Source: Escherichia coli
GTDB taxonomy: Bacteria > Pseudomonadota > Gammaproteobacteria > Enterobacterales > Enterobacteriaceae
Assembly (NCBI RefSeq): GCF_003018115.1
Contig: NZ_CP027457.1
Reading direction: 5' to 3' (one strand)
DNA: 64,000 nt
Shown: one piece after another, positions 5,837 to 11,495 of the stretch
How the letters are laid out: each line of letters begins with the position of its first letter
Position numbering within the stretch: the stretch's first letter is position 1
Notes under the pieces: model-generated
Told to the model about the DNA's origin: nothing
Databases searched by the model: none
Seen by the model: the letters and a program-made list of their open reading frames with translations, nothing else
Made by a program: the position numbers and the translations under genes

Positions 5837-6346
5837 ATGGCGACGCTGACAGAAGATGATGTGCTTGAGCAACTGGATGCACAGGACAATTTATTTTCAT
5901 TTATGAAAACGGCGCATTCTATTTTGCTCCAGGGGATACGCCAGTTTCTACCGTCGCTGTTTGTCGATAACGATGAAGAGATCGTCGAATATGCAGTGAA
6001 GCCGTTACTCGCCCAAAGCGGCCCGCTTGACGATATTGATGTTGCGCTGCGTTTGATTTATGCGCTGGGGAAAATGGATAAATGGCTGTACGCCGATATC
6101 ACGCACTTTTCCCAGTTCTGGCATTACCTGAACGAACAGGATGAAATGCCCGGATTTGCCGATGACATGACCTGGGATTTTATCAGCAACGTCAATAGCA
6201 TAACCCGCAATGCGACGCTCTATGACGCGTTGAAAGCGATGAAGTTCGCCGATTTCGCCGTCTGGTCAGAGGCGCGTTTTAGCGGGATGGTCAAAACGGC
6301 GCTGACGCTGGCAGTAACGACAACCTTAAAGGAATTAACGCCGTGA
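5837..6346 (+). CDS. yggD: MtlR-like small regulatory protein (169 aa)
   Basis: ATG at 5837; 169 aa; position and size match YggD. Confidence 0.75.
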   Translation: MATLTEDDVLEQLDAQDNLFSFMKTAHSILLQGIRQFLPSLFVDNDEEIVEYAVKPLLAQSGPLDDIDVALRLIYALGKMDKWLYADITHFSQFWHYLNEQDEMPGFADDMTWDFISNVNSITRNATLYDALKAMKFADFAVWSEARFSGMVKTALTLAVTTTLKELTP

Positions 6347-7056
6347 AAATTGAATTAACGGTGAATGGTCTGAAGGTACAGGCACAGTACCATGATGATG
6401 AGATAGAAAATGTACATAAACCGTTGCTGCGCATGTTGGCGGCCTTACAGACGGTAAATCCGCAGCGGCGTACGGTAGTTTTTCTTTGCGCTCCGCCGGG
6501 GACGGGGAAATCTACCCTAACCACCTTCTGGGAATATCTCGCACAACAAGACCCGGAACTACCCGCTATTCAGACGCTCCCGATGGATGGTTTTCACCAT
6601 TACAATAGCTGGCTGGATGCGCATCAATTGCGCCCCTTCAAAGGCGCACCAGAGACATTTGACGTTGCGAAACTGGCGGAAAATCTGCGCCAGGTAATGG
6701 AAGGGGATTGTACGTGGCCACAGTACGATCGACAAAAGCATGATCCTGTTGAAGATGCGTTGCACGTTACCGCACCACTCGTCATCGTCGAAGGAAACTG
6801 GTTGTTGCTGGACGACGAGAAGTGGTGCCAGCTTGCGCAATTTTGTGATTTCTCGATCTTTATCAACGCGCCAGCTACTGCGTTGCGGGAACGACTGGTG
6901 GGGCGCAAGCTGGCGGGAGGGTTATCGCTGGCAGACGCAGAAGCCTTTTATGACCGTACCGATGGGCCGAATGTTCGCCGGGTGCTGGAAGAGAGTCTGC
7001 CTGCACATTTGACCTTAATAATGACCGCTACGGGTGAATATCGTCTGGTGGATTAA
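6343..7056 (+). CDS. yggC: P-loop nucleoside/pantothenate-kinase-like protein (237 aa)
   Basis: GTG start overlapping yggD stop as GTGA; Walker A motif APPGTGKST; 3-prime end overlaps the convergent ATPase gene. Confidence 0.8.
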   Translation: MKIELTVNGLKVQAQYHDDEIENVHKPLLRMLAALQTVNPQRRTVVFLCAPPGTGKSTLTTFWEYLAQQDPELPAIQTLPMDGFHHYNSWLDAHQLRPFKGAPETFDVAKLAENLRQVMEGDCTWPQYDRQKHDPVEDALHVTAPLVIVEGNWLLLDDEKWCQLAQFCDFSIFINAPATALRERLVGRKLAGGLSLADAEAFYDRTDGPNVRRVLEESLPAHLTLIMTATGEYRLVD

Positions 7057-7705
7057 CGTTCCTGATTACACCATCTTCCAGTCGCACCACCCGAGAGAAA
7101 TGACGCCGGGTAAATGCGGCGTCATGACTGATTGCTACGACGCTCGTGCCTCGCTGGCGGCACTTTTCCAGCCAGCTTTCAAACACGCTCATCCAATTTT
7201 CGTCAAAATCCCGACTCGGCTCGTCCAGCAGCAATAGCGGCGGAGAGAGTGCTTCCAGGCAGGCGACGGCGACCATCCGTCGCTGCGCACTATGCAGATC
7301 TAACGGATGCGCGCTGGCAGTGTCTGCTAACTGACAGCATTGCAGGGCAGCATGGGTACGTTGAGTGATTTCATCCGCCGGGCATTTTTGCAGTTTCAAA
7401 CCAAATGCGATCTCGTCGGCGACGGTGCTGTGAAAAAGCTGGTTTTCCGCTTCCTGAAACAGTACGCCAATCTTTGCTGCACGTTGGCGGTTTTTCAGGT
7501 TTTTCATCGCCTGTTGTTGCAATATAACCGTACCGGTTGTGGGCGTAAGAAGACCTGCCATTACTCGTAACAGCGTCGATTTTCCCGCGCCATTGTCGCC
7601 GGTCAGCGCCAACCATTCACCTTGTTTGAGTTGCAGAGAAATGTCGCAAAGACAATCCGTTGCCGCGCCAGGCCAGCGATAAGTTATCTGATTTAACGTT
7701 AGCAT
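7028..7705 (-). CDS. ABC-type ATPase (225 aa) with a degenerate signature motif; putative EcfA-like subunit 2
   Basis: Walker A GDNGAGKST, Q-loop FQEAE, Walker B LLLLDEPS, H-loop ISHD, but signature is LHSAQ instead of LSGGQ; its ATG overlaps the stop of the upstream ATPase (ATGCTAA). Confidence 0.8.
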   Translation of the reverse strand: MLTLNQITYRWPGAATDCLCDISLQLKQGEWLALTGDNGAGKSTLLRVMAGLLTPTTGTVILQQQAMKNLKNRQRAAKIGVLFQEAENQLFHSTVADEIAFGLKLQKCPADEITQRTHAALQCCQLADTASAHPLDLHSAQRRMVAVACLEALSPPLLLLDEPSRDFDENWMSVFESWLEKCRQRGTSVVAISHDAAFTRRHFSRVVRLEDGVIRNVNPPDDIHP

Positions 7706-8376
7706 AGTGGCTGGAGCGCTCCGTTTTGCAATTGCCAGGCTTGCTGGCAGTAGTTCAGGAAAGGTGTGCGATGACGTTCAAAAAGAATAATCAGCGAACC
7801 ACGTTCAAGCGCCCAGTGTTGTAAGCGCTGCAACAGCATTTCGCTGGCCTGCGGCGTCAGGCGACTAAAGGCTTCATCAAGTATTAAGAGCTTTGGCTGC
7901 ATCGCGATGGCGCAGGCGATGACCACGCGCTGTGTCTCTCCACCGGAGAGTGTTGCCGGGTGACGATGGCGCAACGGCTGGCACTCGGTCAGAGTCAGGG
8001 CGGCATCAATCCGCGCCATAATCTCTTCTTCAGCAAGACACAGATTTTCTGGCCCAAAGGCAACTTCTTCTTCCACGCTAAAGGTACAGCCGGAGAGCTG
8101 CAAATAGGGCGATTGCTGAACGAGCTGGATGGTGGCGGATTGTTCATTAAGCGGGAGATGCCCAATGGGCGTACCGAGAAGCGTCCCCGTGCCGGTTATC
8201 TCTCCTGGCAGAAAGTCCGGATACCAGCCCGCCATCAGCTGTGCCAGCGTACTTTTGCCACTGCCGTTGTCACCAAAGATGGCGACCATCCCCGGTTTGA
8301 CATAGTGAAAGTCATAACAGAACGGAGGATGCGTTGAGTGTGTCGGGCAATAACGGAACTGTTCTAACGTAACCAT
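7699..8376 (-). CDS. ABC-type ATPase (225 aa from ATG 8376; alternative GTG start at 8382) with canonical motifs; putative EcfA-like subunit 1
   Basis: Walker A GDNGSGKST, Q-loop QQSP, signature LSGGETQRV, Walker B LLILDEA; GGAG SD 7 nt upstream of the 8376 ATG. Confidence 0.8.
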   Translation of the reverse strand: MVTLEQFRYCPTHSTHPPFCYDFHYVKPGMVAIFGDNGSGKSTLAQLMAGWYPDFLPGEITGTGTLLGTPIGHLPLNEQSATIQLVQQSPYLQLSGCTFSVEEEVAFGPENLCLAEEEIMARIDAALTLTECQPLRHRHPATLSGGETQRVVIACAIAMQPKLLILDEAFSRLTPQASEMLLQRLQHWALERGSLIILFERHRTPFLNYCQQAWQLQNGALQPLC

Positions 8377-9071
8377 ATCCACGCTCCGAATTCTGTCAGC
8401 ATCAGCAAGATCATGGTGTAACGCGCTACGCGTTGTAGGGTGCTATCGGCTGGTGCCCACAACGTTGTTCGTCGGTTGTGGATCCGAAATGCCCGCATAT
8501 CCAGCGCCGCACCACGGACAGCAAGATTGTTTAGCGCATTGTGTGTTAGCGGAATAATTAACGCGGGCATCGCACGTAAACGCTGATACCAGCCCTCATC
8601 CAGCGGCACGCCGCGGGCACGCTGCGCTTCATGAATAATCGCTAATTGCCGTTTTAACTGCTCAACGACCAATAACGGCCCGGCAAACAGATAAGCGACG
8701 CCTGGCGGCAGGCGAGAAGCAAACAGAGCGCGGATAAAACATTGCACGGGGACGTACTGCATCCACAACTGTGAGGTTGAAACAATCGCCAGAATCCGCA
8801 ACCAGAGCGTAATAGCATGCGTCCAACGCTCCGGCGAACGCGGCGTGCCGCTTAGCCATTCTGTTAGCCAGCCACCGTGTACCAGCCACAGCCCGGCTCC
8901 CAGCGAGAACATCAGCCAGACGACATATTTTGCCCGCCGCCGCGTGGCCTTTAGCGCAATAAGGCAGAAAAAGGTCGCCGCGCTATAGACTGGCAGTATT
9001 GTCTGTGTGGGCAGGATAAGCGTGGTGCAGGCCGCCAATGCCCATAGTGTTAATGAGGTAAATGGATGCAT
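8364..9071 (-). CDS. EcfT/CbiQ-like transmembrane component (235 aa)
   Basis: Polytopic hydrophobic protein containing an EAQRARGVPLD stretch resembling the CbiQ/EcfT coupling motif; its ATG directly abuts the stop of the upstream gene (TAAATG). Confidence 0.7.
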   Translation of the reverse strand: MHPFTSLTLWALAACTTLILPTQTILPVYSAATFFCLIALKATRRRAKYVVWLMFSLGAGLWLVHGGWLTEWLSGTPRSPERWTHAITLWLRILAIVSTSQLWMQYVPVQCFIRALFASRLPPGVAYLFAGPLLVVEQLKRQLAIIHEAQRARGVPLDEGWYQRLRAMPALIIPLTHNALNNLAVRGAALDMRAFRIHNRRTTLWAPADSTLQRVARYTMILLMLTEFGAWIWLR

Positions 9072-9650
9072 TTAGCGCACGGCAGCCATTGCCGGAAAAT
9101 GGCGCGTGGTGCGAATCGGCAGCTGGCGCAGTAAAAGCCAGACAATCACCGCTGTAAGAGTTTTATCGACCAGGTTCGCGCCTATCACCGTAATCGCCAC
9201 CGACTCCACCAGGTTTTGCCCCATCGAGTGCATCCAGGCAACGAACAAATCGGCTCCGCTACCGGTGACACCGCCGAACAGCGCAGTACGCAGCGGTACA
9301 GCGACGACCGTTACCGCAAGCGTAATAATCACGCCGCTGACAACGACTTTTGGCAGGGTGCGAAACCAACCCGCTCGCGCCAGCCAACCGGCGACCAGGC
9401 CGATGACCATCGCGACGGGTGCAAATGCGGCGGCGATCGGGTCGGTCAGCAATCCCCAGAGTAAATTGGTCAGTAAGCCGGTCAGCATTCCGATCACCGG
9501 ACCAAGCAGTACCGCGCTAATAAGTGTGCCGATGGAGTCGAGAAATATAGGTAATTTGACCATGCTGGCCAGTTGCCCGCCGATCATATTGATGGCGATA
9601 GATATAACGATCAACACCAGTGCCTGACTGGAAAAGTGGCTACGCGCCAT
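9072..9650 (-). CDS. ECF-transporter S-component-like small integral membrane protein (192 aa from ATG at 9650; ORF track extends to a TTG at 9749)
   Basis: About six predicted TM helices with an N-terminal FLDSIGT motif; GAGAGG SD upstream of the 9650 ATG. Confidence 0.6.
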   Translation of the reverse strand: MARSHFSSQALVLIVISIAINMIGGQLASMVKLPIFLDSIGTLISAVLLGPVIGMLTGLLTNLLWGLLTDPIAAAFAPVAMVIGLVAGWLARAGWFRTLPKVVVSGVIITLAVTVVAVPLRTALFGGVTGSGADLFVAWMHSMGQNLVESVAITVIGANLVDKTLTAVIVWLLLRQLPIRTTRHFPAMAAVR

Positions 9651-9672
9651 AAGAAAACCTCTCTGAAAGTAG

Positions 9673-10104
9673 TTATTTAACGGGGGAAATATGCAACTCG
9701 TCGTAACCAGAAAGCGCGCAAGGTTGGCGGCTAAACGCCAGTTCCTCAAGGCTACCGATCACCAGTTCAAGCGTGGTCCGCACGGTACAGCCGGGCATCA
9801 TATGACCGCCAAGCATCGTGCCGTGTGGATCGGAAACGCAGAGATGAAGATGCTCACCACTCTGTTCCAACGTGCCGTTTAGTGAGATCACTTCGAATGT
9901 ACCGTTCAGGAGCGTGGTGCCTTCTTGCCCGGCATAGCGCAAGGCGATGTCAGTCAGGCTACCGGTACAGCCTGCAATCCAGGCGGCATGAAGTTGCTGC
10001 TGCTGTGCAAAAGCGTGTAGCTGGGAAAAAACTTCCTGCCCGGGGAGGAGGCGCAGTGCGTAAAAGCGTGCGGAGGAAGAATATGGGTAGGGCAATGTCA
10101 TCAT
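9673..10104 (-). CDS. PPC-domain (DUF296) protein, function unknown (143 aa); first gene of the transporter operon
   Basis: 143-aa soluble protein with a His/Cys-rich stretch (HLHLCVSDPHGTMLGGHMMPGC) that I recognise as PPC/DUF296-like; GGAG SD upstream of ATG at 10104. Confidence 0.6.
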   Translation of the reverse strand: MMTLPYPYSSSARFYALRLLPGQEVFSQLHAFAQQQQLHAAWIAGCTGSLTDIALRYAGQEGTTLLNGTFEVISLNGTLEQSGEHLHLCVSDPHGTMLGGHMMPGCTVRTTLELVIGSLEELAFSRQPCALSGYDELHISPVK

Positions 10105-10475
10105 TGGAGTACTCCGAAACTCGGACGTATTGCGGATAATATCGACGCTGCATCAGTCATATTCTGATATAAGTCAGGGTTTGTGACGGCACAACGAAAA
10201 GATTTTGCTACGCTTATTCGTGATTCTGCAAAGTGGAATAAATTCCACAGGGGCGGGGCTGAAAACGTGACGTAAGTCAGATATTTGTTTTCTTTGACTG
10301 GACAATCATTCCTTTTATTCCACGTTTCGCTTATCCTAGCTGAAGCGTTTCAGTCGATTAAATGTTCGACAATTAACCAATCAGTCGCAGTTTGCGACAG
10401 GTAAGGTTTCCCCGGACGATTTGCTGGATTACTCTGTCTGGCAAATTTGCTCAGGGAAAACCTTGCAGGAGATCT

Positions 10476-11495
10476 ATGACCGTACGCGTAGCGATAAATG
10501 GCTTCGGTCGCATCGGGCGTAATGTGGTTCGTGCTTTGTATGAATCCGGACGCCGGGCGGAAATTACCGTGGTGGCAATCAACGAACTGGCGGATGCTGC
10601 GGGCATGGCGCATTTGTTGAAATATGACACCAGCCATGGCCGTTTTGCATGGGAAGTACGACAGGAACGCGATCAACTTTTTGTTGGTGATGACGCCATC
10701 CGCGTATTGCATGAACGTTCACTGCAATCGCTCCCCTGGCGTGAACTTGGCGTTGATGTAGTCCTCGACTGCACCGGCGTATATGGCTCCCGCGAGCATG
10801 GCGAAGCGCATATTGCCGCCGGGGCCAAAAAAGTGCTCTTTTCACATCCTGGCAGTAACGATCTCGACGCGACCGTTGTTTACGGCGTCAATCAGGATCA
10901 ACTTCGTGCGGAACACCGCATCGTTTCTAACGCTTCCTGTACCACGAATTGCATAATTCCCGTCATCAAATTGTTAGATGATGCGTACGGTATTGAGTCC
11001 GGCACTGTGACCACAATTCACTCCGCCATGCACGATCAACAGGTTATTGATGCATACCATCCTGACCTGCGTCGCACCCGGGCAGCCAGCCAGTCGATCA
11101 TTCCGGTCGATACTAAACTGGCCGCCGGTATCACACGATTTTTTCCGCAATTTAACGATCGCTTTGAAGCGATTGCGGTACGTGTGCCAACCATAAATGT
11201 GACGGCAATCGATTTAAGCGTGACGGTGAAGAAACCTGTAAAAGCCAATGAAGTCAACCTGTTGCTGCAAAAAGCAGCACAAGGTGCATTTCATGGTATA
11301 GTTGACTATACGGAATTGCCGTTGGTCTCTGTAGATTTTAACCACGATCCGCACAGTGCCATTGTCGATGGCACCCAAACCCGGGTCAGTGGCGCACACC
11401 TGATCAAAACGTTGGTCTGGTGCGATAACGAATGGGGCTTTGCTAACCGAATGCTCGACACGACGTTAGCTATGGCTACTGTTGCTTTCAGGTAA
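10476..11495 (+). CDS. epd: D-erythrose-4-phosphate dehydrogenase (339 aa)
   Basis: [16 protein letters not shown]-terminus and GAPDH-family fold with catalytic SNASCTTNC; true ATG at 10476 inside the longer TTG-initiated ORF. Confidence 0.95.

Follow-up and report, generated by a model that had tools for sequence, protein, structure and literature searches.

What does a tightly packed operon of five genes do between yggC and epd in some Escherichia coli strains, and where does it come from? [quoted passage not shown] The block proved to be O-island 119 (OI-119) of enterohaemorrhagic E. coli (EHEC) O157:H7, i.e. z4267-z4271 in strain EDL933, whose first gene is lmiA. We consider it likely that this operon, lmiA-ecfS-ecfT-ecfA-ecfA', specifies a dedicated (group I) ECF importer and, alongside it, a soluble PPC/DUF296 protein carrying a three-histidine metal site, a prediction drawn from sequence and fold comparisons. 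What is new here is the ancestral origin of the block, its place in a PPC-ECF module found across phyla and the enzyme-like fold of the PPC protein.

Reading of the open reading frames (ORFs) confirmed five minus-strand genes at 10104..7028, in the order PPC, S (substrate-binding), T (transmembrane coupling) and two ATPases, A1 and A2 (Table 1). For the S gene, the PGAP annotation and the homologue alignment agree on the ATG at 9650, which follows a GAGAGG ribosome-binding site; the mechanical ORF extends further, to a TTG at 9749. A gap of 22 nt separates the PPC and S genes, and the T and A1 genes overlap by 13 nt. Two further junctions had been described as overlaps, TAAATG and ATGCTAA. The latter is indeed a 7-nt overlap between A1 and A2, whereas at the former the TAA of S is directly followed by the ATG of T, and these genes abut without overlapping. 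The genes yggC and A2 are convergent, with 3' ends that overlap by 29 nt (7028..7056). From the spacing and the conserved gene order, we infer that the five genes are co-transcribed on one transcript; consensus scans for promoter-like and terminator-like sites inside the operon gave no excess over shuffled sequence.

The locus itself is not new. OI-119 measures 3.12 kb in EDL933 (PMC7667037), and its counterparts in O157:H7 Sakai are ECs_3799-3803. Overall identity of the window to Sakai is 98.2%; over lmiA and the lmiA promoter it reaches 100%, in every 200-nt interval from 9600 to 10800. Given this identity, an exact PhoP footprint and a readable promoter, the window therefore encodes LmiA itself. 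In the identical region of strain F9792, the RefSeq/PGAP labels are 'PPC domain-containing DNA-binding protein', 'ECF transporter S component', 'energy-coupling factor transporter transmembrane component T' and two 'ABC transporter ATP-binding protein' genes, and the genome paper of E. coli W reports the block in the epd-yggC region under a cobalt label, 'cbiQ-O2' (PMC3032704). The two papers on LmiA (Liu et al., mBio 2020; Gut Microbes 2024) deal with the same locus and the same five genes. They treat the island as horizontally acquired and PF03479 as a DNA-binding domain, and they leave z4268-z4271 unassigned and do not note a PPC-ECF module; in our analysis, by contrast, the island appears ancestral in Enterobacteriaceae, the characterised fold relatives of the PPC protein are zinc enzymes, and z4268-z4271 are predicted parts of an ECF importer within a conserved module. 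The arrangement had been presented as uncharacterised, which holds for the transporter and for its link with PPC but not for the locus, in view of OI-119, the studies of lmiA and the ECF labels in RefSeq.

Searches with hidden Markov models (HMMs) and fold searches supported the PPC, S, T and ATPase assignments. The S protein is a small integral-membrane protein with the S-component fold and a PF12822 match in the HMM search (Table 1). Its closest curated family is NF045596, 'CD3073 family putative ECF transporter S component', at 134.9 bits against 18.8 bits for the next family, although it misses the curated cut-off of 180 bits. All the PPC-linked and hydrolase-linked S relatives tested also fall below this cut-off, at 120-151 bits, and are therefore sister subfamilies of the CD3073 family. 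That family was named by NCBI for a neighbouring gene number, CD3073, on which a literature search found nothing relevant, and it neighbours NF045597, 'CD3072 family TudS-related putative desulfidase', whereas the partner gene here is PPC. For the T protein, the coupling motifs QRARG and VRG..LD are kept in 62 homologues, homologues match CbiQ significantly, and the C-terminal (T) halves of natural S-T fusions match TIGR02454 at 1e-6 to 1e-13.

Both ATPases find their best NCBIfam models in ECF_ATPase_1/2 (1e-35 to 1e-44, under the curated equivalog cut-offs), and both carry Walker A and Walker B, as expected of a pair of CbiO/EcfA-type ATPases. In a motif survey, the A1 signature was canonical (LSGGE here, LSGGE/Q in the family), as were the A2 H-loop (ISHD) and the A2 Walker A/B motifs; the A2 signature was degenerate (LHSAQRRM in E. 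coli, LH[STAV][AG]QRRM family-wide) and the H-loop histidine of A1 mostly absent across the family. The pair therefore has one consensus and one degenerate composite ATP site. Taken together, the four transporter parts show the sequence and fold hallmarks that define an ECF system. The gene order, in which S comes with its own T and A genes, is that of group I, and the same order occurs in 71 related loci. As in BioMNY, CbiMNQO and YkoEDC, the S, T and ATPase genes share one operon, and the likeness extends to the fold of S, the coupling motifs of T and the CbiO-type ATPases; unlike these systems, the present one has a conserved soluble PPC protein as its first gene and one degenerate ATP site. 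We know of no other ECF system with a PPC-type partner, and none of the papers searched combined PPC/DUF296 with ECF terms.

Variants of these components were seen among the relatives. S-T fusion proteins of about 460-490 amino acids were collected (P0155, P0164, P0172, P0183, P0235), and T-A-A' fusions of about 690-840 amino acids occur in Synergistaceae and in an Ardenticatenaceae genome (loci with S-T or T-A-A' fusions: L062, L075, L077, L090). A metagenome contig of 5.5 kb (L006) carries three paralogous S genes of the family described here around a single fused double ATPase of 684 amino acids. An S-like membrane domain of this family is also fused to the N-termini of histidine kinases (P0211, 935 amino acids; P0218, 569; P0230, 447), which suggests that the S fold has been reused as a sensor input domain.

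Association of the PPC gene with the transporter genes was assessed in the 80 best S-related loci, with about 500 weaker relatives lying beyond this sample. In 72 of the 80 loci, a PPC gene lies upstream of S on the same strand, at most 200 nt away, and ATPase genes follow downstream in 71 of these 72; in all eight loci without an adjacent PPC gene, S identity is 49% or less. Loci of the PPC-S-T-A-A' type were found in Gammaproteobacteria (Enterobacteriaceae, Morganellaceae, Hafnia, Budvicia, Aeromonas, Wohlfahrtiimonas) and in other Proteobacteria (Laribacter, another betaproteobacterium, Rhizobium, Kaistia, Brucella, Aminobacter), and PPC-ECF loci extend beyond them to Desulfobulbaceae and other Desulfobacterales (Desulfobacterota), Synergistaceae (Synergistota; with T, A and A' fused) and several Chloroflexi (Chloroflexota). 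A rough neighbor-joining tree groups the PPC-linked S proteins as a single clade. Because the PPC-S-T-A-A' order is kept in 72 of the 80 loci, the PPC protein is probably a working partner of the importer. The same rough tree departs from the species phylogeny, Aeromonas branching inside Enterobacterales and Synergistaceae beside Proteobacteria; this conflict suggests that the module moved between phyla, though it was inherited vertically within Enterobacteriaceae.

The PPC protein matches PF03479 at 4e-28 in the HMM search and has the PPC fold and the conserved H-x-H...H site that mark the family; its Salmonella orthologue is the protein of the solved structures 2HX0 and 2NMU. Twenty positions are invariant among 36 ECF-linked PPC proteins, including H85, H87, H101, E71, E113, R18, R56 and R126, a pattern typical of a metal-centred ligand site. 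We know of no activity for any PPC protein. The only characterised fold relatives returned by the fold search are zinc enzymes: alpha-acetolactate decarboxylase and PTD012 are zinc proteins with the PPC fold, although they are twice as large and share only 9-17% identity with it. The three histidines of LmiA were themselves proposed as possibly zinc-binding (PMC7667037). No DNA-binding fold was seen in the PPC protein, and direct reading of its 143 residues found no AT-hook (RGRP) anywhere. In plant AHL proteins, it is the AT-hook, not the PPC domain, that contacts DNA. Without such a fold or hook in the bacterial protein, its 'DNA-binding' label is inherited from the plant AHL proteins. Published gel-shift, chromatin immunoprecipitation and footprint results are not disproved by this, but they are not predictable from the PPC domain.

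The distribution of the block bears on its origin. In MG1655, yggC (b2928) and epd (b2927) are adjacent, separated by a 284-bp spacer, and the block is absent, as the original prediction had stated for K-12. The suggested variability between strains was borne out as well, since 3317 of 5426 complete E. coli genomes (61%) carry the block and about 39% do not; in the block-lacking genomes sampled, yggC and epd are adjacent. The same five genes in MG1655, or a failure of HMM searches for the PPC, S and T proteins, were the two outcomes held to speak against the original prediction; both were looked for and neither was seen. [quoted passage not shown] The block was found in Nissle and UMN026 in this analysis and has been reported in W (PMC3032704), and its primary role therefore cannot be LEE control.

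Base composition is native-like (G+C content of 53-57% in the block, 49-55% in the flanks), in line with what had been proposed. In Salmonella, epd is divergent from PPC-S-T-A-A', and a scan of one genome per species found epd at most 700 nt from the PPC gene, on the opposite strand, in 23 loci of 12 enterobacterial groups, which include E. albertii, Citrobacter, Kluyvera, Atlantibacter, Klebsiella michiganensis, Enterobacter, Superficieibacter, Phytobacter, Pseudescherichia and Silvania. Between E. coli and Salmonella, the five genes have a synonymous divergence (dS) of 1.26-1.73, a level comparable to the 0.92 of epd. The ratio of nonsynonymous to synonymous divergence (dN/dS) is 0.05-0.16 for all five genes in comparisons with Salmonella, Citrobacter, Kluyvera, Atlantibacter and K. 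michiganensis, a range that marks them, by this measure, as functional genes under strong purifying selection. Because the block is epd-adjacent in Salmonella and in 12 enterobacterial groups and is under strong purifying selection, it appears to be ancestral and to have been deleted in K-12-like lineages, as the original prediction had proposed, and not to be horizontally acquired as the LmiA papers state.

Comparison with the empty-site strain M217 delimited the segment involved (Table 1). Homology ends at window position 6987, inside yggC and 69 nt before its stop codon, and restarts at 10255, the 132 intervening bases of M217 being unrelated or highly diverged. Identity drops from about 96% to 83% as the left junction is approached and measures 94% immediately right of the block, compared with 98-100% farther out, a pattern that fits an old deletion polymorphism whose flanks are still linked. 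Near the junction, the yggC allele of block-lacking strains shows 83% DNA identity over the last ~290 aligned bases (window 5900..6987 against locus L002), and the C-termini of the two alleles are homologous but different (...ERVLMNSRQANLIVEMTEEGRYHFTS vs ...RRVLEESLPAHLTLIMTATGEYRLVD). In at least one E. coli genome (NZ_CP180597.1), cmtA is annotated as adjoining epd, a larger deletion in which yggC, fumE, yggF and yggP are missing too.

A neighbourhood profile of the S component had been suggested as a guide to its substrate; it yielded weak nucleoside and sulfur hints and no conserved flanking gene. S proteins of 41-47% identity without an adjacent PPC gene lie beside RihA/UriH-like nucleoside hydrolases (L084, L091, L092, L093, L095), with a ribokinase also present in L092 and L095; the order in L091 is PPC, hydrolase, S, T, A, A'. 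On the sulfur side, a related S protein at 44% identity (P0132) belongs to an S-T-A-A operon followed by a gene that passes the NF045597 cut-off, a CD3072-family TudS-related desulfidase (L007). In four Chloroflexi loci, a gene of about 116 amino acids directly upstream of PPC matches only the C-terminal half of YedF, a selenium-metabolism protein (TIGR03527, 106 bits; Table 1), and in Morganella and Brucella TsuA/YeeE adjoins the module. Apart from these hints, the 17 flanking genes annotated have unrelated functions, and most contexts of metagenomic S relatives lie on contigs too short to inform. That the cargo is nucleoside- or nucleobase-like, possibly sulfur-carrying, is accordingly a doubtful proposal, though one with some chance of being right, and the weak best guess would be a modified, possibly thiolated, pyrimidine nucleoside or base.

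A more specific candidate is QrtTUVW, which Rodionov et al. (2009) reportedly predicted to be a queuosine-precursor importer; that the block encodes this system strikes us as improbable. The QrtTUVW family is presumably TCDB 3.A.1.28, and the Salmonella genes STY3230-3233 presumably bear the SEED label 'queuosine-regulated ECF transporter'. The S-T-A-A' order with two separate ATPases fits the QrtT-U-V-W order, and sister S genes lie next to nucleoside hydrolases, to whose family the queuosine hydrolase QueK presumably belongs. However, the adjacent hydrolases score best as pyrimidine-specific RihA/UriH, neither the window nor 29 related loci yielded a preQ1 riboswitch, and tgt/que genes are absent from all 80 neighbourhoods. 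QrtT is filed under PF12822 (PMC11130926), as is the present S protein, but E. coli makes queuosine de novo and salvages it via YhhQ (PMC5372724). The queK-qrtT-queL cluster of Clostridioides difficile, in which an ECF S component is encoded beside soluble enzymes that process the imported compound (PMC11477304), is nevertheless a model for the PPC protein here. In that species, QrtT uses a shared ECF module under preQ1-riboswitch control, whereas the present system has a dedicated module, riboswitch searches found none, and its surroundings are free of queuosine genes.

Import of a metal, i.e. cobalt or another divalent cation needed at low Mg2+, seems very unlikely. The 'cbiQ-O2' annotation of the E. 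coli W paper (PMC3032704) would point that way, as would the resemblance of the T and A components to CbiQ and CbiO, the PhoP-dependent induction at low Mg2+ (PMC7667037) and the three-histidine metal site of the PPC protein. Similarity to CbiQ/CbiO is, however, common to all ECF systems, and the cobalt label was rejected as a carry-over from it. The S protein has no CbiM/NikM family match, its N-terminus is not conserved among homologues, unlike the conserved metal-binding N-terminal end of the CbiM/NikM type, and the block holds no CbiN- or NikN-like gene.

The preferred reading, a dedicated ECF importer with a soluble PPC partner, can be laid out as a sequence of steps. PhoP activates the lmiA promoter at low Mg2+, and transcription starts there (PMC7667037). 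The S component would bind a small organic micronutrient outside the cell, dock on T, topple and carry it in. By analogy with the ECF family, ATP hydrolysis by the A1/A2 dimer would drive the transport cycle, probably at the single consensus site formed by the P-loop and H-loop of A2 with the signature of A1, the second site (A1 P-loop and A2 signature) being the degenerate one. In the cytoplasm, the PPC protein would bind or chemically process the imported molecule, and the effect of LmiA on virulence genes would be a later, lineage-specific use of the PPC protein, or an indirect effect. A broader proposal is tentative, and we rate it as possible rather than probable: PPC/DUF296 proteins would be an unrecognised class of soluble partners, zinc enzymes or ligand sensors acting on the cargo, of a multi-phylum family of dedicated ECF systems, this being an ancient salvage module for modified, perhaps thiolated, nucleosides or bases, and what LmiA does to virulence, acid resistance and biofilms in EHEC would stem from a core enterobacterial gene, either co-opted recently or acting through a metabolic side effect, and would not be the function of a horizontally acquired regulator.

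Several observations weigh against this account. In EHEC, lmiA (z4267) is reported to be PhoP-activated at low Mg2+ and its product to bind the LEE1 promoter (PMC7667037); LmiA is also reported to activate gadA and gadBC and indirectly to repress biofilm genes (PMC11657066). Direct binding, to the LEE1, gadA and gadBC promoters, is reported in two papers, each with electrophoretic mobility shift assays and chromatin immunoprecipitation followed by quantitative PCR (PMC7667037, PMC11657066), and with a DNase I footprint in the first (PMC7667037), which favours a regulator over an enzyme. The PPC protein would then be purely a transcription factor, an auto- or global regulator that heads the transporter operon, senses the imported ligand or metal and binds DNA, and performs no chemistry on the cargo. 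We regard this as unlikely, yet as a serious rival to a processing role. It would also account for the 169 genes differentially expressed in an lmiA mutant (PMC7667037, PMC11657066); small regulators that sense a ligand or a metal are typically encoded first in an operon, no second regulator gene is present in the module, and a palindrome in the 5' untranslated region of lmiA is kept in 11 genera. It is harder to reconcile with a PPC fold devoid of any recognised DNA-binding motif, a sequence without the AT-hook used by plant AHL proteins and characterised fold relatives that are zinc enzymes. The upstream regions of loci outside Enterobacteriaceae share no common element, and the nucleoside hydrolase gene of L091 sits between PPC and S, a slot for enzymes in sister clusters. 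The published 17-bp LmiA motif is absent from the window even with as many as 3 mismatches allowed, and autoregulation through it was rejected.

Other adverse points concern the transporter. Deletion of z4268-z4271 in EHEC gave no adherence or LEE phenotype, and the function of these genes was left open (PMC7667037); the transporter is therefore dispensable for the published LmiA function under those conditions. The T protein on its own matches CbiQ PF02361 weakly (2.9e-4). A1 and A2 are without some 50 C-terminal residues seen in most relatives: the ATPases measure about 225 amino acids in Enterobacteriaceae and Wohlfahrtiimonas and about 265-285 in most other relatives, and these two groups have therefore lost the segment. 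The silent deletions, the shortened ATPases and the degenerate ATP site could together be taken to mean that lmiA has brought the transporter genes along as decaying remnants, which we find barely credible. All four transporter genes show the low dN/dS given above at saturating dS, reading frames are intact in the Enterobacteriaceae loci examined and the shortened ATPases are a fixed trait of Enterobacteriaceae; the degenerate signature occurs throughout the family and is therefore a design feature, not decay. The remaining points bear on the cargo: ORF clustering of all 80 loci found no neighbour beyond the five genes conserved across taxa, the module being therefore self-contained, and no riboswitch was found in the window or in the 29 related loci. 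As a result, the substrate guess draws only on contexts in sister subfamilies, at about 41-47% S identity.

To our knowledge, ECF transporters are regarded as absent from E. coli, since K-12 lacks them; one such system would be present in about 61% of the complete E. coli genomes and in many Enterobacteriaceae. The lmiA gene has already been invoked to explain magnesium-dependent virulence of EHEC, as a horizontally acquired DNA-binding regulator. If it is instead an importer's ancestral partner whose metal site is enzyme-like, the published account needs re-examination, and the function of PPC/DUF296, which is also the core of plant AHL proteins, becomes testable through one defined operon. 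Otherwise, the locus is an ordinary, already annotated presence/absence polymorphism.

Table 1. Positions of the operon genes, upstream elements and related features (window coordinates, except where a locus is named)
Feature	Position	Strand	Basis or remark
lmiA (z4267 / ECs_3799), PPC/DUF296 protein, first operon gene	9673..10104	-	143 aa; three-histidine site H85, H87, H101
Predicted ECF substrate-binding S component (z4268)	9072..9650	-	192 aa; PF12822 8e-8
Predicted ECF T (EcfT/CbiQ-like) transmembrane coupling component (z4269)	8364..9071	-	235 aa; CbiQ PF02361 2.9e-4
ABC ATPase A1 (z4270)	7699..8376	-	225 aa; ECF_ATPase_1 3.5e-35, motif survey
ABC ATPase A2 (z4271)	7028..7705	-	225 aa; ECF_ATPase_2 4.4e-44, motif survey
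Segment separating block-carrying from K-12-type strains	6988..10254		blastn end points and identity gradient; 132 bp instead in M217
lmiA promoter (published), -35 TTGCAG	10231..10226	-	both elements read in window; PMC7667037
lmiA promoter (published), -10 TAGCAAAAT	10210..10202	-	read in window; PMC7667037
PhoP DNase I footprint CTTACGTCACGTTTTCAGC (published)	10258..10276	-	exact, single match in window; PMC7667037
CRP-like site TCTGA-N6-TCACG	10281..10266	-	kept in 11 enterobacterial genera; overlaps PhoP footprint
Conserved palindrome CTGA(C/T)TTATATCAG, lmiA 5' untranslated region, candidate operator	10164..10177	-	alignment of 11 genera
Conserved inverted repeat TCCGAGTTTCGGA overlapping lmiA Shine-Dalgarno	10113..10125	-	alignment of 11 genera
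YedF-like genes (Chloroflexi)	L072 7211..7561; L083 215..565; L089 7198..7554; L085 just upstream of PPC		three by clustering, one read from sequence

The region between lmiA and epd was read against the published promoters. The transcription start site (TSS) of lmiA is reported 90 nt upstream of its ATG, i.e. at about 10194 (PMC7667037). The epd promoter is under the control of Crp and Cra, and the reported TSS distance of 132 nt places the epd TSS at about 10344 (PMC2759082). The CRP-like site, of which K-12-type strains carry a diverged version, has its centre about 70.5 nt upstream of the latter. Given this distance and the overlap with the PhoP footprint, the same DNA may serve both divergent promoters, that of lmiA and that of epd.

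Of the two repeats in the lmiA leader, the TCCGAGTTTCGGA repeat shows one compensatory change, in Superficieibacter; neither it nor the CTGA(C/T)TTATATCAG palindrome was found outside Enterobacteriaceae. The 105-nt leader has no folding advantage over shuffled sequence (z = -0.09), and a structured leader RNA was rejected on this ground. Rfam searches of positions 6800-10700 gave no riboswitch match at E<=1, and scans of the 29 related loci at gathering thresholds returned only tRNAs, a tRNA-Sec and an unrelated guanidine-II element. The tRNA-Sec gene (L079 12749..12840) lies about 1.7 kb downstream of the Desulfobulbaceae module and the guanidine-II riboswitch (L071 6234..6278) about 1.2 kb upstream of the Kaistia module, and both are probably unrelated to it. 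On the epd side, CTGAAACGCTTCAG at 10340..10353 is invariant in 11 genera and resembles the Cra (FruR) box of the epd promoter.

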